DNA of 44,248 bases, taken from the IMG/VR virus record IMGVR_UViG_3300021057_000017, positions 1 through 44,248 of that record. The stretch is one strand, 5' to 3'. Positions within the stretch are counted from its first letter, which is position 1, and each line of letters begins with the position of its first letter. Below the pieces are notes generated by a model. That model worked only from the letters and a program-made list of their open reading frames with translations, had not been told where the DNA came from and made no database searches. The position numbers and the translations under genes were made by a program. Below, piece by piece: positions 17,613 through 30,231 of the stretch. This DNA comes from a virus.

Positions 17613-17634
17613 GGGGCGCTTGAGTTATTTGGCA

Positions 17635-18101: not shown

Positions 18102-18271
18102 TCACCCTCTCCTTTTTGGTGCGTGATCTTAAACACTTCAAGTCCTCCGGTAAGATAGCCTTCGAGTCTATCTAGTGCCGACTTCGTAAGACTCTCCCGT
18201 GTCAGATTCTTTACTGCTTTCACCTGGATGAGTGCGCCTTCGATGAACGATTTGAATCTAGGTTCGGTCAT
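18098..18271 (-). CDS. Hypothetical protein (57 aa)
   Basis: MTEPRFKSFIEGALIQVKAVKNLTRESLTKSALDRLEGYLTGGLEVFKITHQKGEGE, preceded by regulatory element copy B. Confidence 0.5.
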   Translation of the reverse strand: MTEPRFKSFIEGALIQVKAVKNLTRESLTKSALDRLEGYLTGGLEVFKITHQKGEGE

Positions 18272-18322
18272 TAGGTGATTCTTTCTGTATTGAATACAGT
18301 TATATTAGATATATCCTTCATG
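18272..18322 (-). promoter_or_regulatory. Repeated regulatory element, copy B (palindrome CTGTATTGAATACAG at 18285-18299)
   Basis: The minus strand reads CATGAagGATATAtctaatataaCTGTAtTcAATACAGAAaGAAtcACCTAATG. Confidence 0.6.
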
Positions 18323-18780
18323 GTGCCCTCTAGGCCGGGCGGGCCTAAAACTTGGGGTCTGCAGAGTCGAACTGCTCTTGCGGAATCACATCCGCTGTGC
18401 TCGGTCAACCTCCCGTTACACTAAGACCCGGATTCCTTCTGTAACTTAGTGTCAGCCGTCGCCATGACTGACTCTCGGATTTTATGAGCGCCCATCATCT
18501 AGTGTCTGGCTTATTTCCTCTAGACTACTTGGCATCCGATTTCCGCCTTCCTGTTCTCTCTGGTGGACCGAACCCACCTTCATATGCGAGAACGTCAGCG
18601 GCACAACTTACTGACTAGGCAGGACTGGCTACCTGCATGAGGTGTCTGTTCCGTGCTCTTTTTCGTTTCAGGGCAGTGTCCTTACTCCTACTTATCAGCA
18701 TCGACCACCTCGTAGGCCCGGATTTAACGGATTCTACGCGTCTTGGGTTACGTTCCCTTCCGCCACTAGTCATTCTTTTC
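18323..18780 (-). other. ORF-free, hairpin-rich island (candidate structured ncRNA and/or replication origin)
   Basis: All three minus frames are broken by stops. The island holds many 5-8 bp GC stems, four copies of CGGATT plus variants, two 22-nt hairpins of the form GTCAGC-N10-ACTGAC, and a degenerate third copy of the operator element at 18433-18455. Confidence 0.5.
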
Positions 18781-19059
18781 CTAATCCTTTGTGCGCTTAA
18801 AGTGGTCTTCTGCGATCCTTGCCAGACCTTCGTACATATCGCTTCCAGCGTAAGGAAGATATTCTCGGAACTTCTGAGCCAACGTCTTCTCCTTCGGTCT
18901 AGGTGTGCCGCAGATGGGGCAGAGGTTCCAACTTGTCGTTAGATATGTCACGCTATCCTCATCTTTAAATCTGTAATCCGGCTTGCACATGGGACTGTAC
19001 TGACCATATTCAATGTGTTTGCACCATTGTTCTTTTCTGTTGAAAGACAGGTCAATCAT
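18781..19059 (-). CDS. Hypothetical zinc-ribbon-containing protein
   Basis: 92-aa track ORF with AAGGAG upstream and a CPIC motif. Confidence 0.55.
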   Translation of the reverse strand: MIDLSFNRKEQWCKHIEYGQYSPMCKPDYRFKDEDSVTYLTTSWNLCPICGTPRPKEKTLAQKFREYLPYAGSDMYEGLARIAEDHFKRTKD

Positions 19060-19094
19060 GTAGTCTCCTTGGGGCGTTCAGACGCCACGCGGGT

Positions 19095-19364
19095 TTAAAC
19101 CTGAACCCGCGCACGTATCGACTGTATGCGCTGAATCAGTCCCGAGAGTCTAAACACAATCTCTGATGCTGGCGCGCTTGGATCACAAGCCAGTTTTTTC
19201 TCCGTATCAGGAGTAAGGACAGGCCGAAGTGCTTGCTCAAGCGTTTGTAGTTCCTGATAGGCCGCCTCTATAAGCTCGAACGCAATAGATGGTGCTAATG
19301 GCTGAACAGCCTCGCATGTTGCAGTTAATCCGTTTACGGGTCTTCCGTATCCGACTGTGTTCAT
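19095..19364 (-). CDS. Hypothetical protein
   Basis: 89-aa track ORF. An 8-bp hairpin (cgcgggtt/aacccgcg, 19088-19111) overlaps its 3' end. Confidence 0.5.
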   Translation of the reverse strand: MNTVGYGRPVNGLTATCEAVQPLAPSIAFELIEAAYQELQTLEQALRPVLTPDTEKKLACDPSAPASEIVFRLSGLIQRIQSIRARVQV

Positions 19365-19559
19365 TCACTCCTCCTTGTTAAATATCGCGCACCCAACACC
19401 CGCCCTCTCGCACTCCATCATTACCCTAGCTTTATAAAGTGCCTCTAAATTCAATCTTCCGCTTACGTCCTTTGTTTTCCTCTGAAAAACAGAACTACCA
19501 AGACCAGAAAAATCAGATAACACGCGAACCACATCGCTTCTCCTAGTTGAACATCCCAT
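19365..19559 (-). CDS. Hypothetical protein
   Basis: 64-aa track ORF abutting 19364. Confidence 0.45.
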   Translation of the reverse strand: MGCSTRRSDVVRVLSDFSGLGSSVFQRKTKDVSGRLNLEALYKARVMMECERAGVGCAIFNKEE

Positions 19560-19992
19560 TTAATTGACACGTTATTTGTTCCAGCTCTTCAAGTGTCCAT
19601 TTCTTCGGTTGTGCGCGTTTCTCGAAAAGATAATCAAACGTCTCGCGCCCTTCCCGGTCTATGACAACTGCCGCAATCTTCTCAGCCGCCCCATGCCAGC
19701 CATTCGCTTTTGCTTGATTAAGCCCATTACAAACAAGTGTTCCGTTTCTAGGGTCTAGGAATGTCCAGGAGTGGGTGCGCGTCCTGCAATGATCGGCTTG
19801 CTTTGGGAGTGCGCACGACGGACCGTGAACCTGGCAGATCCCCTTATCGCGCCTATAAATTGCCTGTTTCCATGCTTCCTCTGCGGCTTTTAGGGCCTGA
19901 TCGAGGAGCGATTTTCTCGATCTTTTCTTTTTGAGAGGCTTTCTTTTCTTAATCGCGCCCCCAGGATGCCCTTTTTTACGCATTAGAGCCAT
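19543..19992 (-). CDS. NinG/Rap-like protein (putative structure-specific nuclease)
   Basis: 149 aa with a basic N-terminus. CQVHGPSC...ADHCRTRTHSWTFLDPRNGTLVCNGLN recalls the Cys/His core of lambda NinG-family proteins. This is a weak call made from memory. Confidence 0.4.
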   Translation of the reverse strand: MALMRKKGHPGGAIKKRKPLKKKRSRKSLLDQALKAAEEAWKQAIYRRDKGICQVHGPSCALPKQADHCRTRTHSWTFLDPRNGTLVCNGLNQAKANGWHGAAEKIAAVVIDREGRETFDYLFEKRAQPKKWTLEELEQITCQLNGMFN

Positions 19993-20254
19993 TTCTAGGC
20001 CCCTTTCTCGTCTGGAACGATCGTTCTATCAGACTTGGCGACAAAAAGAAGTCTAGAGGCTGTTTTAGAACCCTTGCAATAATCAGCATCTCGCCGATAT
20101 CAGGCTCGGTTTCTCCACCTTCGTACCGAATCCATGTCTGCCTGGATAACTCAAGCCCCTCGCTGTAAAGCTCTAGGACTGTCTTTTCCTGGCTCCAACC
20201 AAGGGTTGCTCTGGCATCTTTCAGACGCTTGCAATTAAACCGCTTCACGCGCAC
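19976..20254 (-). CDS. XRE/Cro-type helix-turn-helix regulator
   Basis: 92 aa. LKDARATLGWSQEKTVLELYSEGLELSRQTWIRYEGGETEPDIGEMLIIARVLKQPLDFF is a typical HTH_3 layout. Confidence 0.7.
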   Translation of the reverse strand: MRVKRFNCKRLKDARATLGWSQEKTVLELYSEGLELSRQTWIRYEGGETEPDIGEMLIIARVLKQPLDFFLSPSLIERSFQTRKGPRNGSNA

Positions 20255-20640
20255 CCCTCGAATTGTCTTAGTCTTTCGTTTATTTTTTGGTGCGACAAAA
20301 AGTCGCCCTCGGGTATGTCTTTCTTGGCGTCTTTCAGCCAGTGGATCTTTGCGGCGTTTGAGTTCTCAGCTTGGCGGCAGGCCTTGAAATACGCCGAAAT
20401 CGCCTCATCATTGCCGATTTTTAGCTTCTGCTCCTGACTCAGCCTGTCATACCCATCCATCGCCGTAGGTCGAGTAGGCTTGTACTCAGGTACAACCTCG
20501 CAAAAAACCTCGTCCTGGAGAAGCATGTAAGCCATTTCTCGGTTTAGCTCGGCCTCCGTGATTTTGCCCTTGAGAAACAGGTCGAGTTGCTTGGTGCAGA
20601 GTTTTGCGATCTCGGTTTTTGCTTCAGGCATGACGAGCAT
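20245..20640 (-). CDS. Hypothetical protein
   Basis: 131-aa track ORF, coupled to the replication-organizer-like gene. Confidence 0.5.
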   Translation of the reverse strand: MLVMPEAKTEIAKLCTKQLDLFLKGKITEAELNREMAYMLLQDEVFCEVVPEYKPTRPTAMDGYDRLSQEQKLKIGNDEAISAYFKACRQAENSNAAKIHWLKDAKKDIPEGDFLSHQKINERLRQFEGCA

Positions 20641-21400
20641 TTTTGGCCTCCATTCGGGCGAGAATTGCCGCCGCTCCTGTGAGATTTGACGGGCCGCCCC
20701 CCTCGTCCTCCCAACCTTTCGCGTTAAGCCAGGTCGCGGGGTAGGGGATAAACCTACCGCCGTCTCGTAGCCACTCCGCCGAAGTCTTGGCCTGCTCTAC
20801 CGCACGTAGAATGCGGTCTTGGAGCTGCTCGTTCGGGGCTATGGCTCTCCAGGCTTTCTCGGCCTGGCCTTTGCTTTTACGCTTTGGGTACGAAGACCAA
20901 AAACTCTCAAACCCTTGGGGGGTAGGGGGGTGTTCTTTTGGTTTGGTTAGGTTAGGTAAGGTTAGGTTATGTAGGGTCGCCTTTAGGTCGCCATTAGGTC
21001 GCCAATCTCCTCTTTTCGTATGTTCTTGTGTTTGCCCATACTTACGTCCATGTTTTGCCCAGATCATTTTCAGCTTTTTTTTGTAGTGCGAAGAATATTT
21101 TTTGATGAGGTACTTGCCTGCGTAATCAACCCAATCGTGAATTAAGCCGTTTTTGGTGATGAGATAAGCGGCCTTTAAATGCTCCAAAAGGGTGTCCGGC
21201 GGGATGTTTTTATCAAGCCTTGAAAGATACTGATCTGGGCTAAAACGGCTTAGATCGCCGTCCTCTGCGTACTGTAGCGCCCACCACCAAAGCCTCATTA
21301 ACTTCCCTATTGCCTCGTCCTGGTTCCAATTAGTTAAAGCGCAAATCCTTACCAGTTTTGGATGTTCTTCTAGGCTTTGATGAGATTCAATCCATGCCAT
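20624..21400 (-). CDS. Replication initiation/organizer-like protein
   Basis: 258 aa. The N-terminus is WIESHQSLEEHPKLVRICALTNW...LMRLWWWALQYAEDGDL. The C-terminal block FESFWSSYPKRKSKGQAEKAW...GGRFIPYPATWLNAKGWEDE is a pattern common in phage replication proteins. Confidence 0.5.
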   Translation of the reverse strand: MAWIESHQSLEEHPKLVRICALTNWNQDEAIGKLMRLWWWALQYAEDGDLSRFSPDQYLSRLDKNIPPDTLLEHLKAAYLITKNGLIHDWVDYAGKYLIKKYSSHYKKKLKMIWAKHGRKYGQTQEHTKRGDWRPNGDLKATLHNLTLPNLTKPKEHPPTPQGFESFWSSYPKRKSKGQAEKAWRAIAPNEQLQDRILRAVEQAKTSAEWLRDGGRFIPYPATWLNAKGWEDEGGGPSNLTGAAAILARMEAKNARHA

Positions 21401-21690
21401 CCGTGCGCTCTCCGATATTCAGCCCAGTTAAAGTTTTCAGCACCTTTACTCGTATTGCAGAACGCGCACAACGGTTGCAGGTTATCTACTCCGTCACTAC
21501 CCCCCTGATAAATTGGAATTATGTGATCTTTGAATAAGAAGTATTCGTCGGTGCCACAGCGAACGCACCGCCCGAACTCGGCTTTCAGGGCTTCCCACTG
21601 CTCTTTAGTGTGAGAGCCTTTCTTCCTGGCGGCGTCTAATCTCCTCTTTCTTTTTCTTTGGTTCAACCGCTTCAAATCGGATTCGTACAC
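21370..21690 (-). CDS. HNH endonuclease
   Basis: CVRCG...DHIIPIYQGGSDGVDNLQPLCAFCNTSKG is a canonical HNH beta-beta-alpha-metal motif. Confidence 0.85.
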   Translation of the reverse strand: MYESDLKRLNQRKRKRRLDAARKKGSHTKEQWEALKAEFGRCVRCGTDEYFLFKDHIIPIYQGGSDGVDNLQPLCAFCNTSKGAENFNWAEYRRAHGWHGLNLIKA

Positions 21691-21740
21691 TAGTTAGCCT
21701 TCTTAAAAAAATTGTTTAAATTTAAGGAGCAAAAAAAATC

Positions 21741-21956
21741 TTAAAACAGCGAAAGCTGACGTTCTTGCGGTACAAGCTGATACCAATGCTTCCTGTGGTC
21801 CTCCTTGTCCTGGAAGCTTTCAATCTGGTAGCCCTTTTGTTTAAGCTCTGAGATCCTAGCGGCGTACCGGATCATTCCGGTCTTTTCGTGAATCTCGAAG
21901 TTTGAGTGAGGCTTACGATCAAAGAGAAGATCAAGCAACTTCTGCTTCTGTGTCAC
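21741..21956 (-). CDS. Winged-helix DNA-binding protein (71 aa)
   Basis: GTG start with GGAGG 6 nt upstream. IRYAARISELKQKGYQIES is a common wHTH pattern. The long track version 21741..22112 has an implausible N-terminus overlapping 21931..22176. Confidence 0.5.
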   Translation of the reverse strand: MTQKQKLLDLLFDRKPHSNFEIHEKTGMIRYAARISELKQKGYQIESFQDKEDHRKHWYQLVPQERQLSLF

Positions 21957-22176
21957 CGAACACCTCCGTGTATATGGCTTGCAGGCGTTGAATCTCCTCC
22001 CAGGAAATAAGATCAATAAGCTTGATTTCTCTGAGAGACTTCGGATCGCTCTTGTCGTAGTAGCCGTCCATGTACTCCATGAGATAACCGATAAAGCTCC
22101 GGTCTCGCGCACTCAAAGAGTCAAACTTCTTAGATTCGCGCACCTCGAAAACCTTGTCAGCCAACGTTTTCTTCAT
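21931..22176 (-). CDS. Hypothetical acidic protein
   Basis: 81-aa track ORF. Confidence 0.5.
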   Translation of the reverse strand: MKKTLADKVFEVRESKKFDSLSARDRSFIGYLMEYMDGYYDKSDPKSLREIKLIDLISWEEIQRLQAIYTEVFGDTEAEVA

Positions 22177-22570
22177 AACGAGTGCTCCCGAATTTAGCCT
22201 CCCAAGTTTCCCTCATCGCCTTAAGTTCTAAGCCGATCCTAGATAGGGCGGAGGCAATAGCCGTGAGTTGGAGATCTAAATTTGAGCCATTGCCGTTTAG
22301 AGTCACCGTTGGGGCCGTAGGCAACTTAACTTCCGTGGCACCTAAGATTCTCTTTGCCGCAGGCACCCCACCGGACTCCTTAAGAGCCTGCTTTACCCCT
22401 TTATCAGAGCGCGAATTGATAATCGCGTTCGCTTCATCCACGATCTTTTGATTAGACGCGCCCCATTTAGGATCGTGGACATCGGTGTTTTGGACGAGCC
22501 AGAATAGATAGTCCGTCGGGCACTCCGACATATCTTTGCCCTTGTACTTTCCGAATTTGACGATAGACAT
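22157..22570 (-). CDS. Hypothetical protein with FGKYKGK..YLxWL N-terminal motif
   Basis: 137 aa. IVKFGKYKGKDMSECPTDYLFWLV is a motif frequent in phage proteins (DUF3820-like, recalled from memory). Confidence 0.5.
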   Translation of the reverse strand: MSIVKFGKYKGKDMSECPTDYLFWLVQNTDVHDPKWGASNQKIVDEANAIINSRSDKGVKQALKESGGVPAAKRILGATEVKLPTAPTVTLNGNGSNLDLQLTAIASALSRIGLELKAMRETWEAKFGSTRYEENVG

Positions 22571-22579
22571 TTTCTCTCC

Positions 22580-22771
22580 TTATCCGATGTAAACGGGTTG
22601 TGTGATGTGCGAGTTGACCATGATCTTTGTTTTGCCGACTGTGACGGGCACATAGCCGTTAATTGGTGACTTGATTTCAGCCACAACCTTAATATTCGAG
22701 GTGCCAAGTTTCTTGCGCCTCATGTACTCACGCATATAAAGAACTTTCTTTGACGGTCTGACTCGTTTCAT
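22580..22771 (-). CDS. Hypothetical basic protein (63 aa)
   Basis: Internal Met of track ORF 22580..22960 with AAGGGGGA upstream. The longer form overlaps the nuclease gene. Confidence 0.45.
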   Translation of the reverse strand: MKRVRPSKKVLYMREYMRRKKLGTSNIKVVAEIKSPINGYVPVTVGKTKIMVNSHITQPVYIG

Positions 22772-22835
22772 ACATCCCCCTTTTCTTCTGTTTGCCAGTA
22801 AGACATCATTTCCCACTCTTTGTATGTCGGTTCCA

Positions 22836-23594
22836 TTAGAGGCCGAACCTCGCCTTAAACGCGCCCCGATCCAAAAGAAACGCCTCCCAACCAAGCTGGA
22901 AGTTATCGGATTTAAGATCGAGAACTTCGAGGACGCACTTTTTAAGATCGAAAATTGCAAGCTGATCGACTTTGATGTCGCACTTCTGATAAGCGATTAA
23001 CTGCCGCCACTTCCAAGAGCCTGTTTTCCAATCGGCTAAGGTCGGTTTGCCATCGACGGCGCAAATAATGTCAATCGCGCCAGAATACATATAGCGTTCG
23101 TTAAAGACTTCCCTTTGGCGTTCGCACGAAGCAAAATCAATACGCTTGCCGAACTTTTCAAAAAACTCTTTGTATCTCACATCCTCGAACTTCAAGTTTT
23201 TAAGTGAAACGGTAGGCTTCTCCCATTTACCCGAATCAATAAAGACATTGATGAGCCGTTCAACCTCGGTGCCACGAAGCCCATACTCAGGATCGCCCGT
23301 ATAAGGCTCTGGATTAATGATGGAGGTTACGGAAGGGTAGTTTTTGCCGTCTTTTTGGCGCACCCTGAGATCCGCTAAAGACGCCTTGATTTTGCCCCAC
23401 TCGGCATCAGCCCTTTCGTCTATACGCGCCTTTAAAGCGTCATACTCACGCTTTTCGATTTCTAGAACTTCGGCAGGCGTCTCGCCGTTTAGCTCAAGCG
23501 TGACCTTCTCATGCCACATAGGGGCATCTTGCTCGTAGTTGCCTTTGTTGAACTTTAAAGACCGTCCGTAATTAAGCTCTAGTGTTCGTTTCAC
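22836..23594 (-). CDS. PD-(D/E)XK-family exonuclease-like recombination protein
   Basis: 252 aa. YSGAIDIICAVDGKPTLADWKTG fits a D...(D/E)xK nuclease core. Confidence 0.55.
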   Translation of the reverse strand: MKRTLELNYGRSLKFNKGNYEQDAPMWHEKVTLELNGETPAEVLEIEKREYDALKARIDERADAEWGKIKASLADLRVRQKDGKNYPSVTSIINPEPYTGDPEYGLRGTEVERLINVFIDSGKWEKPTVSLKNLKFEDVRYKEFFEKFGKRIDFASCERQREVFNERYMYSGAIDIICAVDGKPTLADWKTGSWKWRQLIAYQKCDIKVDQLAIFDLKKCVLEVLDLKSDNFQLGWEAFLLDRGAFKARFGL

Positions 23595-23929
23595 ATGCCC
23601 CCCTTAAAATCCTCTTCGTAATCTGGGCCGATGGAATTAAAGTCCTCGGCCAGATAGTCCTGGAAATCCAGTTGTATGTCGTATAACTCTGGAACGTCTT
23701 TATTCATCACGCCCCTGACGTAATTCCAGGCCGCATCGCCGCACTCTTCAGGACAAAGAGGAAGGCGCACAAAACCACTTTCGGCGTAGTTACAAATCCG
23801 CTCCCACGCGCTAGAGTGGCGCACCAAGAAACACTCTAAAAGCCCATCCTTTGTTTCCTCATCAAGATCAATGAGCCAATCCCCAAAATCTCTTTTGGGC
23901 GCAAAGTTAATCATTGAGGCACCGTTCAA
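23591..23929 (-). CDS. Hypothetical acidic protein
   Basis: 112-aa track ORF with an ATGA overlap. Confidence 0.5.
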   Translation of the reverse strand: MNGASMINFAPKRDFGDWLIDLDEETKDGLLECFLVRHSSAWERICNYAESGFVRLPLCPEECGDAAWNYVRGVMNKDVPELYDIQLDFQDYLAEDFNSIGPDYEEDFKGGM

Positions 23930-24104
23930 ATTGAGCGTTCATGTTCTTAACGCTGTCAACGTAGCCTGAGACATAAGACGCCCGGCAAAACTCATGTTCA
24001 AACGGTGTCAGCGGCGCACCCTTAATCTGTTCAAGAGTCTCTTTCCACGCGCCCCACTTGGAAGAAAGTTCTTTCTCAAGCTCATTTTGTAAGTACATTT
24101 TCAA
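23907..24104 (-). CDS. Hypothetical protein
   Basis: 65-aa track ORF. Confidence 0.45.
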   Translation of the reverse strand: MKMYLQNELEKELSSKWGAWKETLEQIKGAPLTPFEHEFCRASYVSGYVDSVKNMNAQFERCLND

Positions 24105-24246
24105 TCTCCTGTCTTAAGTGTTCGGCAAGGTGATACGCCACCGTCTTTTCAAACCATAAAATCTCAGGCAGAAGCGAGTACCACTTGGGCTTATGGATGA
24201 AGGATTCCCGGCATGACTCGCAGTAGTAATAGAGGAAGGCTTTCAT
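24082..24246 (-). CDS. Hypothetical microprotein (54 aa)
   Basis: MKAFLYYYCESCRESFIHKPKWYSLLPEILWFEKTVAYHLAEHLRQEIENVLTK, with an ATGA overlap to the RlpA-like gene. Confidence 0.35.
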   Translation of the reverse strand: MKAFLYYYCESCRESFIHKPKWYSLLPEILWFEKTVAYHLAEHLRQEIENVLTK

Positions 24247-24620
24247 TTGACACGCTCAATGGAGATAGGAATGATGCCGTCTTTTAAGTTGGCAATACGG
24301 GAAAAGGCGGCCTTAGAAAGGTCCACAGCGCGGCCCTTGGCAACAAGCCGCCGGGCAGGGCCAAGGTCGTTATGGCGCACCAAGACTGACTTTTTATTCT
24401 TAAGGTTAGTTACTCGGTAGATACCGCCGAAGTGGCGGGAAGGAAGGGCGCAGGTAAGATCGTTCTCGTTGAAGCGTTCGCCAGAGGCCGTATAGACGCC
24501 AGAAGTCCCCTCGCGCCTACATGACTCATAAGTGTAGTAAGAGGCAGTTAAAGTCCTCGCCTCTACATTCGCGCACAAACTAAGCGCAACTAAGCCTAAC
24601 CAAGCGTATTTCAGTCGCAT
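24243..24620 (-). CDS. RlpA-like double-psi beta-barrel lytic transglycosylase with signal peptide
   Basis: The signal is MRLKYAWLGLVALSLCANVEA. ASYYTYE...GVYTASGERFNENDLTCALPSRHFGG..RVTNLKNKKSVLVRHNDLGP..GRAVDLSKAAFSRI matches the RlpA/DPBB consensus (ASWYG..TASGE.....LTAAH..LP.G..V.VTN..NGRSV.VRVNDRGP...R.IDLS.AA). Confidence 0.8.
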   Translation of the reverse strand: MRLKYAWLGLVALSLCANVEARTLTASYYTYESCRREGTSGVYTASGERFNENDLTCALPSRHFGGIYRVTNLKNKKSVLVRHNDLGPARRLVAKGRAVDLSKAAFSRIANLKDGIIPISIERVK

Positions 24621-24782
24621 TGAGCCCCTTTCTCAATGCTTCTGAATCCAGCTAGGTCTTAAGAGACTTTATAGTCTAATCTGACCTAACTTTTTAACAC
24701 GCCTAATGTACGTTATGTCAGGTTGCCCATAGGGGCCGCTAACAGGACGTATTCAGGCGGGATGATTCAGAAGCAAAAAAGA

Positions 24783-24857
24783 AGCCAACCATGGACGCAC
24801 GGTCTAGGTGCCCGACGCCTTGCGGCGAGGGTTTTCCATGATTGGCTCGATTTTTTT
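24783..24857. terminator. Long hairpin flanked by T-runs on both strands (bidirectional terminator candidate)
   Basis: agccaaccatgga (24783-24795) pairs with tccatgattggct (24835-24847) with one mismatch. An inner cgcc/ggcg stem is present. TTTTTTT follows on the plus strand and cttcttttttgc on the minus strand. Confidence 0.5.
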
Positions 24858-24895
24858 GTGGGTTACTAGACCGTGCTAAAATCATAAGTCTCTTT

Positions 24896-25258
24896 CTAAA
24901 CCTTTTCCGGTAGATTGTCAACATTAATTTCTTTTAATTTATTTTTGATAAAATGCGTATAACAATCTCGATCCATGAATTGATCTTCGCACCAAATTTC
25001 CTCGCCAAGAAATTTCCTCTCATCCTTGACCGGAACGTACAAAAATAAATCTTCATAGCGCATCTTTGTTTCGTTCACGATGAAGCCGACAAAGTTGCCG
25101 GAGATATTACACTGGTTATGAATAATTTGGCTGATGTAGGATGGCTTTACGCCGTACTTCTCAGCCAAGTATTTCTGATTGTTGCGAGTCAATTTGAGCC
25201 ATTTTTTGACAATTGGCCCTCTTATGAGTAGCATGTTTTCATTTACCTCCAGCTTCAC
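24896..25258 (-). CDS. Helix-turn-helix regulator (repressor candidate)
   Basis: 120 aa, AT-rich. LTRNNQKYLAEKYGVKPSYISQIIHNQ is an HTH. A terminator-like hairpin follows, suggesting an isolated transcription unit. Confidence 0.6.
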   Translation of the reverse strand: MKLEVNENMLLIRGPIVKKWLKLTRNNQKYLAEKYGVKPSYISQIIHNQCNISGNFVGFIVNETKMRYEDLFLYVPVKDERKFLGEEIWCEDQFMDRDCYTHFIKNKLKEINVDNLPEKV

Positions 25259-25380
25259 TTTACCTTGCTAAATTCGCCTCGTAGTTTATGAATAGATATA
25301 AGTCCGTGTTCTTGAGGCGTTGAAAGTTAAAGCATGAAAGGTTTCTTTGTCATGCGACAAAAGAGAGGGCAAAAAAAATC

Positions 25381-25545
25381 TTAGATTAACTTCTCTATCT
25401 CTTCGCGTGGAACAAGAATAGTTTTCCCGGCCAGTTTGTAATCCACCTTGCGCGTCTTGACGAGATAGAGAATCGCTTGCCGCGTTTTTCCATGAAGCGC
25501 GGCAATCTCTGAAACCGTTAGATAGTCTTTGAGTGTTGTGTCCAT
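25381..25545 (-). CDS. Excisionase/MerR-type (HTH_17-like) DNA-binding protein (54 aa)
   Basis: Not in the track: MDTTLKDYLTVSEIAALHGKTRQAILYLVKTRKVDYKLAGKTILVPREEIEKLI. This is the classic Xis/AlpA-like layout, and it replaces the out-of-frame 125-aa track ORF. Confidence 0.7.
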   Translation of the reverse strand: MDTTLKDYLTVSEIAALHGKTRQAILYLVKTRKVDYKLAGKTILVPREEIEKLI

Positions 25546-25727
25546 AGGTAATCAGATTCTCCGCTCTAGCCATTGGCATTGCGCCAACAATCGCACCAGA
25601 ACGGCTGACCCGCTTGACGCGGATTGTGCCGGAAAGAATATTCATAATATTATAGTCGCTCATTGTAGGATTTCAAGCTAAATTTGTGAATGACCAGATT
25701 CCCCTTTTTCCTGACCTTTTGCGCACC

Positions 25728-25931
25728 CTAAATAGACTCTTTTGTGTGAGGCTCAATTACTTCAATGGTGATACGGATTTTAATAGCTCTTTCTTGAGGC
25801 AACCAAAATCCTTCTTTCTGTGTGAAAGCTCCAAGCATTTCTATTGCTCCGCCTGGGCATGGATAATCTTTATCTAGCCAAGCTGATTCAGTTGTCCATC
25901 CTATTAATTCTTTCTTTGAAGGCGCACCCAC
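25728..25931 (-). CDS. Hypothetical protein
   Basis: 67-aa track ORF with a GTG start immediately after the upstream TAG. Confidence 0.45.
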   Translation of the reverse strand: MGAPSKKELIGWTTESAWLDKDYPCPGGAIEMLGAFTQKEGFWLPQERAIKIRITIEVIEPHTKESI

Positions 25932-26177
25932 CTAAACACCCTCCTTTGTGCGTGTCTTGAATCCTTCGAATAGTTCTAAATCCTCTTCTTTTGGCATTAG
26001 AGAGAAGCCGCTGACTGAATAAACAATTCCTGGTGGAACGCCAAAAAACTCCTCAAACTTAATATGAATCGATTCAATCCGTCCTATTGATACCGCTTTA
26101 TGTGACGGATTAAAGTGAAACTCGTCATTCATTATTACAATATCCCCTATCTTAAACTTTGGTTTCCGCGCACCCAT
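25932..26177 (-). CDS. Hypothetical protein
   Basis: 81-aa track ORF. Confidence 0.5.
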   Translation of the reverse strand: MGARKPKFKIGDIVIMNDEFHFNPSHKAVSIGRIESIHIKFEEFFGVPPGIVYSVSGFSLMPKEEDLELFEGFKTRTKEGV

Positions 26178-26180
26178 GAT

Positions 26181-26543
26181 TTAACCCTCTGCCTTAGTGA
26201 TAGCCTGTTTAAGCTGATGAATCAAATTCCCAGCACCATTAAACGGGGATTCTTCGCACCCTTCGGACGGATGCTTTGAATAGTCGTAGCGATCTTCTAA
26301 TTGTAATAGCGCCTCTTTACACGCCTCTAACAGCGCCTCATGATTATTCACCGCTTTGACGATGTATGCGGCGTTTGCGTTAATTAAGTCCTTATCATCA
26401 GCGATTGTTCCCCATTCAACACCACAGTCAGCGATAATATGACCTTGTTCGGAATAAACCGCATAGACTTTTTCGTTCGATTCATCTTTCCACATTGTCA
26501 TTAACAGCTTCCACGGTGTAGCAGTATGTTCGCGCACCCTCAT
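26181..26543 (-). CDS. Hypothetical protein, paralog of 27499..27819
   Basis: 120 aa. TATPWKLL...NANAAYIVKAVNNHEALLEACKEAL parallels TPGPWEVY...KNAALIAAAPELLEALI. Confidence 0.55.
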   Translation of the reverse strand: MRVREHTATPWKLLMTMWKDESNEKVYAVYSEQGHIIADCGVEWGTIADDKDLINANAAYIVKAVNNHEALLEACKEALLQLEDRYDYSKHPSEGCEESPFNGAGNLIHQLKQAITKAEG

Positions 26544-26905
26544 TCTCCTTTAGGCTCATACTTAGCTTTTAACCTTGCAAGCTCGTCTCTTTCTGTTTTC
26601 TCTTCCATTTCCTTGCGTAGCCGCTCATTTTCTTTTCTATTGGCATCAGCTTCCTGGTGATTGCGCCACCATAGCTGCATTTCAAGAGAGCAGTTTTTTA
26701 CATTAATGCTTTGGAGTTTGACACATAGCTCTGATACTTTGGTATCTAGAGTTTCCTTATTAGCTCTGCAATAGGCTCTATTGTCATAGCCATCCCATGC
26801 TTTTTTGTCTATATTCTTGCCTTCAAGCTCATCGAGTAGCTGGTAAACACGGCTCAGTTCAATTTCTAGGCCGTTAGCTTGTAAATAATCAGAATTACAA
26901 GGCAT
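26540..26905 (-). CDS. Hypothetical coiled-coil protein
   Basis: 121-aa track ORF with an ATGA overlap. Confidence 0.5.
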   Translation of the reverse strand: MPCNSDYLQANGLEIELSRVYQLLDELEGKNIDKKAWDGYDNRAYCRANKETLDTKVSELCVKLQSINVKNCSLEMQLWWRNHQEADANRKENERLRKEMEEKTERDELARLKAKYEPKGE

Positions 26906-27028
26906 TTATTTATCTCCTTTAGGCGCGGTTTGCGCCCCATCTATCGTTAAAGCACCACAAAAGGCTAGGTGTTCGTACCAGTCTTTGCGTGATGCAAATA
27001 TTTCGTTAGGACAATTAAGACACTTCAT
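26906..27028 (-). CDS. Cys-containing microprotein (40 aa)
   Basis: MKCLNCPNEIFASRKDWYEHLAFCGALTIDGAQTAPKGDK. Its stop abuts the next ATG. Confidence 0.4.
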   Translation of the reverse strand: MKCLNCPNEIFASRKDWYEHLAFCGALTIDGAQTAPKGDK

Positions 27029-27201
27029 TTTGAGTACACCTTTTCCGCTGAATCATAGATTTCTTTTACGCCGCCATCAGCTCTTAATTCTGAAACGTGC
27101 CATTCTCGCTCTCGCCCATCATCAGCTATGACTTTCGCCCAGCCTTCGGCATCAATCGAGAGAATCTTTGTTATTGGAGTCTCGAATCGTGTCCAGATCA
27201 T
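27025..27201 (-). CDS. Hypothetical microprotein (58 aa)
   Basis: MIWTRFETPITKILSIDAEGWAKVIADDGREREWHVSELRADGGVKEIYDSAEKVYSK, with AAGGGGGA upstream and an ATGA overlap. Confidence 0.45.
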   Translation of the reverse strand: MIWTRFETPITKILSIDAEGWAKVIADDGREREWHVSELRADGGVKEIYDSAEKVYSK

Positions 27202-27238
27202 CTATTCCCCCTTTTCTTTACCCGCGCGGAGCGCACTG

Positions 27239-27403
27239 TTAATAACGCTTTGTGTAAACTCTTTCAGAACAAGTATTGCAATACCAGGCTCTTAGACTTG
27301 GCGTATGGCTTTGCCCCTCTTGCCAGTAATGCGTATGTTTCATCGAGCGTGTAAACCATCCAACGCACCATCCAACAACACTACCGATAACAAAATCAAG
27401 CAT
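27239..27403 (-). CDS. Microprotein with N-terminal TM helix (54 aa)
   Basis: MLDFVIGSVVGWCVGWFTRSMKHTHYWQEGQSHTPSLRAWYCNTCSERVYTKRY. Confidence 0.4.
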   Translation of the reverse strand: MLDFVIGSVVGWCVGWFTRSMKHTHYWQEGQSHTPSLRAWYCNTCSERVYTKRY

Positions 27404-27506
27404 TGCGATTTAACTCCCTCAACGCGCACACAAAATCTGACCAGTCCTCTATCACGTTAGTTTGGTACTCCCTCCATAGCCTGTCAACCTGCTCAGTCCT
27501 AGACAT
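27396..27506 (-). CDS. Hypothetical microprotein (36 aa)
   Basis: MSRTEQVDRLWREYQTNVIEDWSDFVCALRELNRNA, with 8-nt overlaps at both ends. Confidence 0.3.
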   Translation of the reverse strand: MSRTEQVDRLWREYQTNVIEDWSDFVCALRELNRNA

Positions 27507-27819
27507 TGCGGCCCTCGGCTTTGGCTATTACACCACATTGAAAACAGCTCTCACCCTCTTCGGTACGTCCTTTTGCGCACTCTTCAGGATCGTGCGATAG
27601 GATAAGAGCCTCCAAAAGCTCCGGCGCGGCGGCGATTAGAGCGGCATTTTTTTCGTCTAGCGCATGAGGATAATAAGTTTCATTGTTGCAGATAGTCTCC
27701 CCACTATCTTTTGATCTAACGCCGACACCTTTGCACTCGTCAGCTTCATGTGAACGCTCGAAATAATAGACTTCCCACGGTCCAGGCGTATGTCGCGCAC
27801 CACTCTGTTTAGTCTCCAT
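27499..27819 (-). CDS. Hypothetical protein, paralog of 26181..26543
   Basis: 106 aa with HTPGPWEV...NAALIAAAPELLEAL, a motif pair seen in many phage hypothetical proteins. Confidence 0.55.
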   Translation of the reverse strand: METKQSGARHTPGPWEVYYFERSHEADECKGVGVRSKDSGETICNNETYYPHALDEKNAALIAAAPELLEALILSHDPEECAKGRTEEGESCFQCGVIAKAEGRNV

Positions 27820-27840
27820 TAGCGTATCCTCCTTAGTGCT

Positions 27841-28245
27841 TTAAACTTCAATCCCTGCCCGATCAGCTAGCCGTCTAGCTGTTTCCTCGAACGCGTACCA
27901 CGCCATAAGGTTTTCAAACTGATCGGTCCCGCCTACATTCTCGGTCCCGTTAAGAATGGCAAGCATTTCAAATACGTTCTTATGCCCAACTTCTTCGGCC
28001 TGTTCGATTGCCAAATCCCATATATCGTCTTTATGGTCTCTATAGAAGGCTATCGTGTCGGAGTAGTAGATAAGATCACTTACAAAACCGGACGCGCACC
28101 CGCCATGAAACAAGTCCTCAAGAACGCCCTTGATACCGCTATCATAATCAGTGGCCTTTTCATTCAGCCAATTAAAAACGAATTTCTCCAGATCGTTTTC
28201 TGTGCTGACTTCCAATTTAGTTACGACTTTGGTATTCTTTTTCAT
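27841..28245 (-). CDS. Hypothetical acidic early protein
   Basis: 134 aa with GAGGAGA upstream. Conserved-looking core GGCASGFVSDLIYYSDTIAFY. Function unknown. Confidence 0.55.
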   Translation of the reverse strand: MKKNTKVVTKLEVSTENDLEKFVFNWLNEKATDYDSGIKGVLEDLFHGGCASGFVSDLIYYSDTIAFYRDHKDDIWDLAIEQAEEVGHKNVFEMLAILNGTENVGGTDQFENLMAWYAFEETARRLADRAGIEV

Positions 28246-28279
28246 GGGTCAATCTCCTCTTTAGGTTGACTGCTACTAC

Positions 28280-28314
28280 CCCGACAGCGTTAGCGCGCTG
28301 ATCGGGCTTTTTTT
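28280..28314 (+). terminator. Intrinsic terminator oriented on the plus strand inside the minus-strand block
   Basis: cccgacagcg (28280-28289) pairs with cgctgatcggg (28296-28306) in a 10-bp stem with one bulge, followed by c+TTTTTTT (28308-28314). On the minus strand the run is A7 upstream of the stem, so the element is not functional there. Confidence 0.55.
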
Positions 28315-28349
28315 ATGCGCTTTCGCGCCCCTCCAATAAAGGTTATAGG

Positions 28350-28496
28350 TTACTTGACCGGAATTACCCAAAGAGTCCATTTACCGACTAAATTCTGTTC
28401 GACATACTCCAAAGCCGCATAATCGTTAGGGGCTTTGAAATGGTGTTGCTCTAGTGCTTTTCCTTGCTCGTGCTTCATTGCCGTGTAACAGATCAT
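28350..28496 (-). CDS. Hypothetical microprotein (48 aa)
   Basis: MICYTAMKHEQGKALEQHHFKAPNDYAALEYVEQNLVGKWTLWVIPVK, with AAGGGGGGA upstream. Confidence 0.4.
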   Translation of the reverse strand: MICYTAMKHEQGKALEQHHFKAPNDYAALEYVEQNLVGKWTLWVIPVK

Positions 28497-28566
28497 CTTA
28501 TCCCCCCTTTGTTATCCCTAGACGCTCTTTCGAGCGTTTCGCCGGCCCACCGGCTCGTCAGTAGGG

Positions 28567-28743
28567 TTAAAGTCTAATGTCTTTAACGTCAATCAAGTCT
28601 ATTTCATCCATTTTTTGAAGCGTGCAATTATAGAATCTGTAGAATCGTCGGACACCATCAAAGCGCGATTTGTCGTTCTCCTGACAATATTCAATATTTT
28701 CAGATCTAATACGATCGCCGTCTTCGGTATATATAATGTGCAT
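28567..28743 (-). CDS. Hypothetical microprotein (58 aa)
   Basis: MHIIYTEDGDRIRSENIEYCQENDKSRFDGVRRFYRFYNCTLQKMDEIDLIDVKDIRL, with GAGGGGAGAGG upstream. Confidence 0.4.
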   Translation of the reverse strand: MHIIYTEDGDRIRSENIEYCQENDKSRFDGVRRFYRFYNCTLQKMDEIDLIDVKDIRL

Positions 28744-28812
28744 CCTCTCCCCTCTTTCCGCGCTATTCGCGCTGTTTATATTGTGTGTGTGTCAACAAGA
28801 GACACAAAAAAA

Positions 28813-28941
28813 CTACTTAGACTTCTCTGTCTCTTTCGCCCATTCATGCCCACAACGACGACACATGAATGTTTTCGACTTAATCCTGTAATACACTGTT
28901 TCACATTTACATTCTGGGCATTGTGGTTTCATGCCCGACAT
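28813..28941 (-). CDS. Zinc-ribbon microprotein (42 aa)
   Basis: MSGMKPQCPECKCETVYYRIKSKTFMCRRCGHEWAKETEKSK. It starts 1 nt after the SprT-like stop. Confidence 0.45.
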   Translation of the reverse strand: MSGMKPQCPECKCETVYYRIKSKTFMCRRCGHEWAKETEKSK

Positions 28942-28942
28942 T

Positions 28943-29293
28943 TTAGCTTGTTTGCGTGTGAGTGTCAACATTTTTCAAGCGCGTCCTTTTATGGTAGCTC
29001 TTTAGCAATCCCGGAACAGCATCAAGTGTACCGCCAATGCGAAGGACAGTTTCGCGCCATTTATCATCATGCCCACTCTCAGAAATAACGTGCGCAACCT
29101 CATGCAACATTAGCTCATTTGAATCTAAGCGGCGTTCTGATAAGAAGCAAATCCAACCTTTGTAATGGCCTTTAATGTGTGAGTGAGCCTTTGCCCGAAA
29201 GCGTGAGCCTTCGCCGCGCTCTACGCACCCACCAACAAAGATCCCTTTTACTTCAGGATGCTTTGATTTAATTGGATGAACAACTACGCCCAT
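28943..29293 (-). CDS. SprT-like HExxH zinc metalloprotease-fold protein (first gene of the early block)
   Basis: LMLHEVAHVISESGHDDKWRETVLRIGG fits the SprT pattern HExxH...GH...W. The start is taken at the Met with AAGGGGGA upstream; the track ORF extends to 29332. Confidence 0.6.
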   Translation of the reverse strand: MGVVVHPIKSKHPEVKGIFVGGCVERGEGSRFRAKAHSHIKGHYKGWICFLSERRLDSNELMLHEVAHVISESGHDDKWRETVLRIGGTLDAVPGLLKSYHKRTRLKNVDTHTQTS

Positions 29294-29332
29294 TATTCCC
29301 CCTTTGTTGAGTAAATTATAGCACACACACAC

Positions 29333-29478
29333 AAACAGTCAATGTCTTATTTCCACTATTTTCTGTCCTAATTCCACCTAGGCCTTTGGCGCGGTTTTGA
29401 TAAAAGAGCGCCTCCCTAAGACTTTTGCGCCCCTAAAAGCTTGACCTTATACTAAGAGAGGAATAAACAATGTAAGTA
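29333..29478. promoter_or_regulatory. Divergent intergenic control region between early (minus) and late (plus) blocks
   Basis: 146-bp gap between divergent first genes. It contains TTGACC at ~29440 and small stems (cttttg..aaaag, ggcgc..gcgcc). No promoter could be assigned with confidence. Confidence 0.35.
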
Positions 29479-29973
29479 ATGGAAGAGCCCATAATCCCCG
29501 AACCGATTCAAGAAGCAATCAACCAAATACCCGAAATCGCGCACCCAAAAGAACCTAAAGTATCTGCTATAGGAAGCACTATAGAGAGGAATAAGAGGAT
29601 ATTAGAGAGGTATTGCAAGGGCGATAAGATTATGGACATTGCTAACGAGCATGGAATCTCACAAGTTAGAGTATGGCAAATCATTGGGAAGAATAAGGCT
29701 CTTGTTAAGTTAGACAAAGAGGTAGAAAAGGTTCGACGGATCAACAGGCTGAAGAAGCTGGAACAGATGGCCCCAAAGAACCTTGCGCCCAAGGATGCAA
29801 AGGATCTTGTAGCCGTTTTAGAGGCCCAAAGGAAGGAATTAGAGCCCGAGAATGACCCTAGACCATCTCAAACCATCAATGTGCAGATAAACGCCCTGCA
29901 AATCGATGGTAAAAGCCAATCGGAGCTATGGGAAATGACCAGGAAACTAATCGAAGGAACTCCAAATACTTAG
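29479..29973 (+). CDS. terS: Terminase small subunit candidate (HTH DNA-binding protein)
   Basis: 164 aa, located upstream of terL (separated by the 259-bp gap 29974..30231). MDIANEHGISQVRVWQIIGKN is a sigma-region-4-like HTH, followed by a coiled-coil tail. Confidence 0.5.
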   Translation: MEEPIIPEPIQEAINQIPEIAHPKEPKVSAIGSTIERNKRILERYCKGDKIMDIANEHGISQVRVWQIIGKNKALVKLDKEVEKVRRINRLKKLEQMAPKNLAPKDAKDLVAVLEAQRKELEPENDPRPSQTINVQINALQIDGKSQSELWEMTRKLIEGTPNT

Positions 29974-30231
29974 ATTTCTAATGTCCTCAAAGTATACTTA
30001 TGTAAGCTATTATGCTAGAGGGCCTTACATGTTAATAGAATACATGTCACAAACCACAACTAATGGTAGGAAATAACTAAGTGTTGGTGATTGTTAAGCG
30101 AATGGATTATGGGAGAGAACCACACCAAGGGGACGGGTACCCCCCTAGAGGCGGGGGTGGGTGATTACTGATAATGCTCTCTCCCAACTTTTATATAATT
30201 TTTTTAATATTCCTCTATTTTCTCTATTAAC

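Follow-up and report, generated by a model that had tools for sequence, protein, structure and literature searches.

Described bacterial Chi words include GCTGGTGG in Escherichia coli, AGCGG in Bacillus subtilis, GCGCGTG in Lactococcus and Streptococcus, GAAGCGG in Staphylococcus aureus and GCTGGCGC in Pseudomonas syringae (PMC5959072, Table 3), and 7+1-mer variants of Chi are partly active (PMC5959072). Some phages hoard such words. The E. coli lambdoid phage LLS carries 23 copies of GCTGGTGG, one per 1.86 kb, in a strand ratio of 20:3 and with half of them within the genome's rightmost 22%; the 20 lie on the sense strand of the late genes, i.e., in the active orientation for RecBCD entering from the terminase-distal right end (Zheng et al., 2025, PMC12315714). 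The Pseudomonas aeruginosa phage MD8 carries the Chi GCTGGCGC in a ratio of 32:0, while over half of 314 lambdoid phages carry no more than a single Chi, and Chi richness in this group goes with the lack of a recombination or anti-RecBCD module; the 'Tritos' class has a nuclease only, and Chi in ratios from 21/6 to 7/2 (PMC12315714). Here we describe a comparable arrangement in a window of 44,248 nucleotides, the whole of the virus record IMGVR_UViG_3300021057_000017 of the IMG/VR database, in which the octamer GCGCACCC and a family of related words are strongly over-represented, predominantly on one strand. The class, that of phages hoarding a polar host-type octamer, is known; the word and the phage group are new, and the copies show a two-zone orientation pattern.

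The window resembles LLS and MD8 in that an asymmetric octamer is among the commonest of the genome, at about one copy per 1–2 kb, in the bias to one strand (10:2 for the octamer and 35:7 for its family, compared to 20:3 and 32:0), in the concentration of copies in about 22% of the genome adjoining the terminase end and upstream of it, and in the patchy occurrence of the word among close relatives. It differs in that the phage belongs to an unrelated, uncultivated family, in that the word matches no known Chi, and in that a distal early zone holds reversed copies; the one relative found to carry the word, here called L017, is enriched in both orientations (30:15) and is one-stranded only in the zone next to terS (12:0). 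In the carriers a nuclease was recognised but neither an annealing protein nor an inhibitor; they may in this resemble the 'Tritos' class, most of their early proteins being of unassigned function. Bacterial Chi words are likewise short (5–8 nt), asymmetric, GC-rich and organised in degenerate families, and the lactococcal one also has a GCGCG core; on the other hand GTGCGCG is the lactococcal Chi written backwards, which is biologically meaningless, and recognition of the present word is proposed on the strength of the phage sequence. We tentatively prefer, as a possibility rather than a likelihood, the reading that the word is an undescribed Chi-like signal for a double-strand-end helicase-nuclease of the host, of RecBCD or AddAB type.

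A polar, DNA-level word family

With about 44.2 kb the window represents the whole, or almost the whole, genome of an uncultivated phage, which was assembled from several samples at 99.98% identity with differing contig start points. Late genes lie on the plus strand, from terS/TerL (29.5–31.8 kb) past the window end and on to 14.4 kb, and the early block consists of about 45 small minus-strand genes running from 29.3 to 14.4 kb under predicted promoters of the ordinary sigma-70 type. The octamer GCGCACCC is found on the plus strand at ten sites (19387, 20249, 23358, 24014, 25721, 25922, 26168, 26532, 28094, and 29539) and its reverse complement at two (15881 and 19773). A preliminary description of the window had listed these twelve sites, and every coordinate and orientation proved exact; its count of about 25 plus-strand copies of GCGCAC between 14.7 and 29.6 kb was reproduced as 25, with 11 copies of the reverse complement and a naive expectation of 3.6. 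The claimed over-representation held against dinucleotide-preserving shuffles, which contain 0.77 ± 0.80 copies on both strands together (maximum 4; none of 100 reaches 12), and against an order-3 Markov model, which expects 1.09 plus-strand copies vs. the 10 seen (P = 2e-7). The Markov expectation climbs smoothly with order (0.5 at order 0–2, 1.09 at order 3, 8.7 at order 6), which means that all of the octamer contributes information and that no single sub-word is its source. Among the 29,674 distinct octamers of the genome GCGCACCC holds joint first rank by frequency, and CGCGCAC is second among heptamers, with a plus to minus ratio of 19:4 over the whole window.

Within a degenerate family of words that reads CGCGC[A/C]C on the plus strand and has 46 sites in the window (Table 1), GCGCACCC is the strongest. 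An unbiased k-mer scan returned further, equally exceptional octamers, ACGCGCCC (10:0), CGCGCCCC (9:1), and TCGCGCAC (8:0), whose minus-strand readings align as (G)GG[G/T]GCGCG[A/T]. When the 64 xxGCGCx contexts were counted on both strands, minus-strand GTGCGCG and GGGCGCG came top in every segment of the window; only G[G/T]GCGCG was exceptional, which rules out a general richness in GCGC as the source. The site is 7–9 nt long and its flanks are without conservation, and a longer repeat around the octamer is ruled out by the unrelated flanking sequences. The preference for G on the 3' side of G[G/T]GCGC arises because the palindromes TGCGCA and GGCGCC are almost wholly avoided. The second polar word, ACGCGCCC (minus-strand GGGCGCGT; 10:0), is evenly spaced, unclustered and mainly found in late genes; it behaves as a second, window-specific word, which could be either a signal in its own right or one form of the main motif.

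The motif is a DNA-level signal and not a conserved peptide, as had been proposed. It occurs in all three codon phases and contributes to the peptides MGARK, V/M-GAPS, (M)RVREH, and GCA*; the phases, the peptides and the four gene-junction contexts first reported were each confirmed on re-reading. Synonymous codons were permuted within each of the 84 genes, so that protein and per-gene codon usage were kept, and this removes the word. In the early block GCGCACCC is seen 9 times vs. 3.6 ± 0.95 after shuffling, the residue being sites in junctions that were left unshuffled, and none of 500 shuffles reaches 9. The family CGCGC[A/C]C is seen 20 times vs. 7.3 in the early block and 11 times vs. 2.5 in late block C (none of 500 reaching the observed number in either), and 4 times vs. 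1.1 in late block A (5 of 500). In conserved late proteins the family word is built from synonymous codons that relatives do not choose (examples in Table 1). An origin of the word in codon usage or in a peptide is ruled out by the shuffles and the synonymous choices. As the sense strand reads GTGCGCG in early genes and CGCGCAC in late genes, a function at the RNA level is unlikely; Rfam and transfer RNA searches found no known RNA family or transfer RNA in the window.

Polarity was assessed against order-1 and site-masked order-3 backgrounds, since a plain order-3 model is inflated by the sites themselves and the strands differ. The octamer taken alone has only a marginal strand bias (p = 0.09), whereas with near-variants included the bias is significant: 35 copies on the top strand and 7 on the bottom strand, where 3.6–4.3 and 2.5–3.1 are expected (p ~6e-4). 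Confinement to the early block, also claimed originally, is correct for the exact octamer but not for the family, which is enriched in late genes too. The absolute strand of the word does not change when transcription flips, with ratios of 15:0 in the terS-proximal, minus-strand early genes and 11:1 in plus-strand late genes. For the layout analysis the genome was linearised before terS, the position of the genome end being an assumption, and in this frame 8 of the 10 octamers (P = 1.6e-4; Kolmogorov–Smirnov p = 5e-5) and 15 of the 35 family copies (P = 0.005) lie in the rightmost 22%. The terS-proximal and distal early zones differ in orientation (Fisher p = 0.0047), and the switch between them falls inside a NinG/HNH-like gene (Table 1), with no origin or terminus features seen at the switch itself.

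Four of the nine early octamers overlap or lie within 12 nt of a start codon (P = 0.003), while in the wider family start proximity is found for only 3 of 20 copies and is not significant. This excess may reflect least-cost placement, as the word begins with G or GTG and first codons are weakly constrained. Repeated motifs at gene boundaries are known as the start-associated sequences of Cluster K mycobacteriophages and as the early promoter/stem-loop cassettes of T4-type phages, and the window shares with them a short repeated motif at starts and junctions of a hyperplastic early region. Its copies are however mostly intragenic and present also in late genes that are coded in the opposite sense; at starts the motif lies across the start codon instead of ahead of it with a ribosome-binding site, and it has no promoter or stem-loop context. 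The suggestion that the copies are boundary sequences promoting module exchange therefore keeps the start-codon octamers on its side and leaves the intragenic and late-gene copies unexplained. A promoter or terminator element was also considered and ruled out, as the word lies outside the predicted early sigma-70-type promoters (29.34, 28.97, and 25.69–25.65 kb) and has no fixed spacing to them.

The word in L017 and its absence from other relatives

Among 26 IMG/VR relatives identified by TerL (61–78% identity) the motif was found in L017 only, a 44.5-kb phage from the same Joint Genome Institute (JGI) sample as the window, with 72% TerL identity; 92% of its genome was assembled from the contigs L017, L244, L365, and L366. 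The motif was found in none of 49 replication-protein relatives, 80 metagenome TerL relatives or 80 genome loci, and an IMG/VR scan for the two-copy pattern gave only chance matches in high-GC contigs among the matches listed. The search of related phages for the skewed word, suggested in the preliminary description, thus succeeded in L017 and failed in more than 150 other relatives. The early regions of the two carriers have no blastn similarity, yet they are colinear and share five proteins of 29–55% identity that are absent from the loci of the other relatives.

The same core with the same zoning has accumulated independently in L017. Its 30 top-strand and 15 bottom-strand copies of CGCGCAC/GTGCGCG are each about 10-fold above expectation, and codon shuffles confirmed the enrichment in every zone (late genes, 14 vs. 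2.1, 0 of 300). The proximal and distal zones differ in orientation (Fisher p = 0.00046), and for the core in both phages pooled the contrast is 22:0 vs. 7:13 (p = 3e-6). Only a handful of copies have positional homologues in the other phage (window 29539, 27423, 32454, 2077, 44108, and 13870), and therefore most copies arose separately in the two lineages. The preferred word also differs slightly, with a GGG extension and GGGCGCGT added in the window and a preference for GTGCGCGA in L017.

It is conceivable that this layout reflects a polar replication or translocation signal, either an orienting sequence of the KOPS (FtsK orienting polar sequence) type or a priming or loading site, with copies arranged around the origin. 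Iteron-like arrays that look like a putative lambda-style origin are found within the replication-initiator gene, at a distance of about 1 kb from the switch (19.78–19.95 kb), the two-zone layout is common to both phages, the sites number about one per kb, and the cumulative GC skew declines steadily over the entire window, which is compatible with largely unidirectional replication. We nevertheless consider such a role improbable, because the window yielded no primase, translocase or Xer/dif-like element, primase sites as known span about 3 nt, and KOPS work on chromosomes and prophages, whereas no integrase or partition genes are recognisable in the window. In addition, the L017 switch lies in a different gene context, at the 5' end of an exonuclease gene, no replication origin was located in the assembled 92% of that genome, and its late polarity is weak (14:6). 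The sites also recall what we take to be the XerC arm of dif/psi (GGTGCGC...), but the conserved ATAA part does not follow them.

The two HNH-type nucleases of the early block (21370–21690 and 19543–19992, the latter common to L017) and a GCGC core placed on one strand across 25 kb bring to mind strand-specific nick sites made by a phage nuclease, as in T5 or phiKMV-type phages. Single-strand interruptions in T5 have a Pu/GCGC context, and the short GCGC-containing one-strand word over most of the genome and the encoded HNH nucleases are points of likeness, although in the window the pattern is known from assembled sequence. Opposite-strand copies only 33–35 bp apart (19611+/19644- in the window, 967+/1002- in L017) make nicking very improbable, since double nicking there would break the genome. 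Seven copies in the window are plus-oriented (i.e., have the G-rich reading on the plus strand) and 15 in L017 lie on the other strand; moreover known nick sites are few per genome rather than about 40, and selection for many copies would be unexplained.

The enrichment of both orientations in L017, each about 10-fold and together about 1.1 sites per kb, would suit an orientation-independent double-stranded DNA signal of the uptake type, or else a passive mutation or repair bias at GCGC without function for the phage. About 1.1 sites per kb is the density typical of uptake sequences (uptake signal sequences and DNA uptake sequences, USS/DUS), which occur equally often in the two orientations, frequently as inverted pairs within terminators, and saturate the genome of the host. 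Among 4-bp palindromes GCGC has the highest enrichment in each of the two phages, while some relatives avoid it about 10-fold (0.1–0.4 per kb), and the 3' G preference follows from palindrome avoidance as described above. Against this, the proximal zones are strictly polar (15:0 and 12:0) and the zones differ significantly, a single context among 64 is exceptional, the word disappears in shuffles that preserve codon usage, there are no inverted pairs acting as terminators nor any association with terminators, and a lytic-type phage has no obvious gain from an uptake signal. Both forms of the idea together are given a low probability.

Restriction-type palindromes behave in the opposite way to the word. 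In the window GAATTC is seen 0 times vs. 18.5 expected, TTCGAA 2 vs. 20.6, GGATCC 0 vs. 9.8, TGGCCA 0 vs. 9.6, GGCGCC 0 vs. 8.3, ACCGGT 0 vs. 6.6, and CTCGAG 1 vs. 11.4. A restriction or modification target, one of the roles first suggested, is contradicted by the over-representation, the word being enriched 5–10-fold where these palindromes of true restriction type are strongly depleted. In L017 the avoided set is in part another one (CGATCG, GAGCTC, CCGCGG, CGGCCG, and TGCGCA, all 0) and does not include GAATTC or TGGCCA, and TTCGAA avoidance is common to most of the phage family. The avoidance profiles correlate with r = 0.41 between window and L017 and r = 0.54 between L017 and L007/L164, which lack the motif.

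These relationships bear on a rival view in which a protein encoded by the phage itself binds or cuts the word, the helix-turn-helix (HTH) protein at 24896–25234 and the NinG/HNH-like nuclease at 19543–19992 being candidates, with sites dispersed like P1 C1 operators or L5 stoperators and motif and reader co-occurring in one sub-lineage only. The motif is present only in the window and L017, which alone have in common the five colinear early proteins, among them the HTH protein (45%) and the nuclease (33%), and relatives on probably similar hosts lack it, as judged from the shared TTCGAA avoidance and the correlations of 0.54 vs. 0.41. A slightly different preferred word in each phage is what co-evolution of protein and site would give, one site in the control region of terS and the early promoters is positionally conserved, and the octamer overlaps start codons above chance. 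The stoperators of mycobacteriophage L5 are 13 bp long and bound by gp71, and the P1 C1 operators are 17 bp long; like them the family comprises dozens of asymmetric sites genome-wide, alongside an encoded HTH repressor-like protein. Unlike them the site is 7–9 nt, mostly in coding sequence and oriented independently of transcription; nor did the window yield an immunity or lysogeny module. A site of this length without flanks is too short for a specific regulator, which hundreds of chance sites in a host genome would titrate away. Most copies lie within genes, the portal and other structural genes among them, and were created by synonymous changes; they keep the same absolute strand when transcription flips, and they have no fixed relation to the predicted promoters. 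We therefore regard a phage-encoded reader as somewhat unlikely, though a serious rival, and the earlier proposal of binding sites for a regulator is disfavoured on the same three grounds of short site, intragenic position and strand.

A possible Chi-like signal and its rivals

If the word is Chi-like, a host helicase-nuclease would read a short asymmetric word on one DNA strand, and by accumulating this word the phage would have its exposed DNA ends spared and channelled to recombination instead of degradation. Relatives without the word would cope with the host nuclease otherwise, e.g., by a recombination module or an inhibitor of their own. Two geometries can be envisaged. In the first, the enzyme would enter, as it does in lambda and LLS, at the terminase-distal end, and the active reading would be that of the plus strand, 5'-(T)CGCGCAC(CC)-3' or 5'-GCGCACCC-3'. 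In the second, ends would arise at the origin near 20–21 kb, as rolling-circle tails or broken forks, and the G-rich minus-strand reading, 5'-(GG)GTGCGCG-3', would face outward on both sides of the switch; this geometry would also account for the reversed copies in the distal zone. We infer the reader enzyme and the active strand, while the statistics and the layout are observed.

A Chi-like signal would account for selection at the DNA level, for a short site without flanks (a length of 7–9 nt being typical of signals read by DNA-scanning enzymes) and for a polarity that is independent of transcription. It would also account for the terminal clustering, for independent accumulation in two phages and for patchiness within the family. 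The recombination genes recognised in the carriers are a weakly matching exonuclease in the window, the only recombination-type function recognised there, and an exonuclease of Cas4/RecE-like type in L017. The window shows no recognisable integrase, partition protein, DNA methyltransferase, annealing protein, single-stranded DNA-binding protein (SSB) or known nuclease inhibitor, nor was an annealing protein, SSB or inhibitor recognised among the proteins of L017, most early proteins of both phages being of unassigned function. Of the roles listed in the preliminary description, the Chi-like anti-degradation signal is the best fit to the polarity, the terminase-distal clustering and the top rank of the octamer, although it is unproven.

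Several observations weigh against a Chi-like signal. Chi is defined by over-representation in the host and by recognition by its nuclease, and here the layout is known from the phage alone. The word equals no published Chi on either strand (GCTGGTGG, AGCGG, GCGCGTG, GAAGCGG, GCTGGCGC), a literature search for the words gave nothing relevant, and the 80 genome loci of distant TerL relatives, which do not represent the host, had no motif enrichment. With the geometry of LLS the active strand would be C-rich (CGCGCAC), whereas all known Chi are G-rich, and simple entry from one end does not account for the reversal of part of the copies in the distal early zone (5:5 in the window, 4:9 in L017). 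Over the whole of L017 the polarity is not significant, both orientations being enriched; the window-specific word ACGCGCCC is absent from that phage or at least not enriched in it, and neither is GGGCGCG(T) enriched there. A shared host strain is unsupported by the avoidance profiles, in which the carriers are no more alike than motif-less relatives. Finally, the carriers share an HTH protein and a nuclease lacking in the relatives, so that the phylogenetic pattern would fit a reader encoded by the phage equally well, and the start-codon excess of the octamer also speaks on the opposing side.

A broader alternative is that the word is a self-contained phage signal rather than a host Chi, read by the HTH protein, the NinG/HNH-like protein or one of the three small proteins found only in the carriers, and serving a polar, zone-specific marking or organising of the DNA around the switch. 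Its use would be self-recognition vs. a phage or host nuclease, or the orienting of replication or recombination. We judge this to be unlikely, and we know of no described counterpart of a short, polar, phage-autonomous signal of genome-wide extent; if it were correct, the word would represent a new kind of polar genome-wide phage signal.

A Chi-like word, on the other hand, would offer a candidate for the sequence that RecBCD or AddAB recognises in an uncultivated host. To our knowledge few Chi words are known, all from cultured Proteobacteria and Firmicutes. Hoarding of Chi in place of a recombination or anti-nuclease module would then extend beyond the lambdoid phages, and the word could be used as a sequence tag linking phages to their host in metagenomes.

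Sites, encoded proteins and further observations

The sites, zones and reference genes are collected in Table 1. Besides these, the early block encodes further HTH proteins and a DPBB protein. The HTH protein at 24896–25234 has two weak matches in IMG/VR only, and no indexed homologues.

Table 1. Family sites, zones and reference genes in the window, with the zones of L017; the strand is that on which the listed word or gene reads, and ratios are top:bottom strand.
Feature	Position	Strand	Context
Strictly polar, densest zone (terS-proximal early)	19901–29450		family 15:0 (p ~0.002), octamer 8:0, ~1.6 sites/kb
Late block C			family 11:1, p ~0.013
Late block A			family 4:1
Distal early zone	14379–19900		family 5:5, both orientations enriched; 5 of 7 plus-oriented window copies
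Orientation switch interval	19781–19954		inside NinG/HNH-like gene; ~1 kb from putative origin
L017 zones			terS-proximal early 12:0; distal early 4:9; late genes 14:6
Second polar word ACGCGCCC	2077, 13870, 22457, 22860, 24048, 32454, 33825, 39469, 39847, 40456, 44108	+	
terS-like gene (29479–29973) and large terminase (30232–31848)	29479–31848	+	reference point for lambda-style layout
HTH repressor-like protein	24896–25234	-	common only to window and L017, 45% identity; candidate binder under a phage-encoded reader
NinG/Rap/HNH-like nuclease	19543–19992	-	common only to window and L017, 33% identity
HNH-type nuclease gene	21370–21690		second of two HNH-type nucleases in early block
Exonuclease-like protein, weak match	22836–23594	-	syntenic with L017 Cas4/RecE-like exonuclease
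Iteron-like tandem arrays (GGTTA)x6 and GGTCGCCATTA x2.7	20940–21004		inside replication-initiator gene 20624–21400; GC dip follows
GGGTGCGCG	19386–19394	-	octamer 19387–19394; 21 nt before end of gene 19365–19559, ~23 nt upstream of next start
GGGTGCGCG	20248–20256	-	octamer 20249–20256; junction, overlaps TGA stop of 20245–20640 and GTG start of 19976–20254
GGGTGCGC	23358–23365	-	within exonuclease-like gene 22836–23594, phase 1
GGGTGCGC	24014–24021	-	within gene 23907–24098, phase 2
GGGTGCGC	25721–25728	-	overlaps last base of TAG stop of gene 25728–25931; upstream of promoter-like sites at 25.69–25.65 kb
GGGTGCGC	25922–25929	-	begins at G of GTG start, gene 25728–25931
GGGTGCGCG	26167–26175	-	begins at G of ATG, gene 25932–26177 (MGARK)
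GGGTGCGCG	26531–26539	-	4 nt past A of ATG, gene 26181–26543; ATGA overlap with gene 26540–26905
GGGTGCGCG	28093–28101	-	within DUF7222 gene 27841–28245, phase 0
GGGTGCGCG	29538–29546	-	5' part of terS-like gene, antisense; positional homologue of L017 8852
GGGTGCGCG, reversed	15881–15889	+	distal early zone; antisense in gene 15846–16091
GGGTGCGCG, reversed	19773–19781	+	antisense in NinG/HNH-like gene 19543–19992; last plus-oriented copy ahead of switch
GGGCGCG	2077–2083	-	antisense in late gene 325–2496; GTGCGCG at homologous L017 position
GTGCGCG	3902–3908	-	late gene
GGGCGCG	4348–4354	-	late gene
GGGCGCG	10444–10450	+	one of two plus-oriented copies outside distal early zone
GGGCGCGT	13870–13876	-	gene 13630–14376
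GGGCGCG	15246–15252	+	distal early zone
GTGCGCG	16207–16213	-	distal early zone
GTGCGCG	16957–16963	+	intergenic, distal early zone
GGGCGCG	17225–17231	-	distal early zone
GTGCGCG	19108–19114	-	distal early zone
GTGCGCG	19611–19617	+	NinG/HNH-like gene
GGGCGCG	19644–19650	-	NinG/HNH-like gene
GGGCGCG	19954–19960	-	first copy of strictly polar zone
GTGCGCG	21463–21469	-	HNH gene 21370–21690
GTGCGCGA	22106–22112	-	gene 21931–22176
GGTGCGCGA	22137–22143	-	gene 21931–22176; 24 nt from copy 22106–22112
GGGGCGCGT	22457–22463	-	
GGGGCGCGT	22860–22866	-	
GGGGCGCGT	24048–24054	-	
GTGCGCGA	24570–24576	-	DPBB gene 24243–24620
GTGCGCGT	27423–27429	-	small gene 27396–27506; positional homologue of L017 7920
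GGTGCGCGA	27794–27800	-	19 nt past start of gene 27499–27819
GGGGCGCGA	28324–28330	-	intergenic
GGGCGCGT (plus-strand ACGCGCCC)	32454–32460	-	portal gene, conserved ERAL codons; L017 there CGC GCA C
GGGCGCGT	33825–33831	-	portal gene
GGGCGCG	35580–35586	+	sole plus-oriented copy of late block C
GGTGCGCG	38654–38660	-	methyltransferase gene; plus-strand codons ACC GCG CAC
GGTGCGCG	38767–38773	-	A-A-H codons GCC GCG CAC; other codons in relatives
GGGCGCGT	39469–39475	-	D-A-P codons GAC GCG CCC; relatives GCC CCC, GCC CCG and others
GGGGCGCGT	39847–39853	-	T-R-P codons ACG CGC CCC; relatives ACA CGG CCT, ACG CGA CCT
GGGGCGCGT	40456–40462	-	GT2 gene
GTGCGCGT	41460–41466	-	GT9 gene
GTGCGCGA	42765–42771	-	
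GGGGCGCGT	44108–44114	-	intergenic; core word at homologous L017 position

In L017 a perfect 7-bp inverted pair, GTGCGCG-N28-CGCGCAC (967–1008), stops directly ahead of the ATG of the NinG/HNH-like gene, whose ribosome-binding site lies between the two arms; the pair could form a hairpin in the messenger RNA that hides this site. A weaker analogue is found inside the homologous gene of the window (19611/19644).

GenBank phages gave no near match to the window, TerL identity to isolates being at most 34%. The nearest TerL relatives in sequenced genomes (L082–L161) have 40–50% identity over the N-terminal half and lie in mostly prophage-like regions, several of them on contigs of 100 kb to 2 Mb, which belong mostly to Vampirovibrionales, Melainabacteria and Cyanobacteriota genomes, e.g., V. 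chlorellavorus NCIMB 11383 and Vampirovibrio sp. OL03a. These matches hint weakly at Vampirovibrionales or Cyanobacteriota as the phylum of the host.

The phage family is varied in lifestyle and recombination genes, the window being without an integrase or a recognisable annealing protein. L007 (76% TerL identity, sister JGI sample 3300021062) has a tyrosine integrase at 5224–6135, and in the motif-less L024 the stretch 1820–4404 encodes an exonuclease, an annealing protein resembling Sak4, a protein with a weak match to SSB, and a RusA-like resolvase.

A set of sugar-modification genes lies in or beside the structural block of the window (37461–41883) and comprises a sugar C-methyltransferase (Methyltransf_13/14/23), a GT2 glycosyltransferase and a GT9 heptosyltransferase-like protein, and an RmlC-like dTDP-sugar epimerase is encoded at the far end of the early block (14726–15133). 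The set is conserved in relatives and could serve glycosylation of the virion or modification of the host surface. Within the otherwise tightly packed early block about 500 nt (18100–18615) are poor in open reading frames and hold scattered imperfect inverted repeats (e.g., 18250–18269 with 18566–18585).

Early regions of the motif-less relatives L007, L164, L014, L015, L028, and L031 have weaker, lineage-specific words of their own, which resemble parts of early promoters, e.g., TTGACA-17 nt-TATGCT with a repeated (GG)AGTATGC in L014, and TTAAAAGC after T-rich stretches in L007/L164. Polar high-copy words in phage early regions appear to be common and little studied, as extremely strand-specific octamers were also seen in many unrelated phage contigs found through the replication protein (L033–L081), e.g., GCCAACCT in L064 (19:1), AACTCCTC in L040 (11:0), CAGCCGTC in L065 (12:0), and AGCAGCCC in L069 (12:0).

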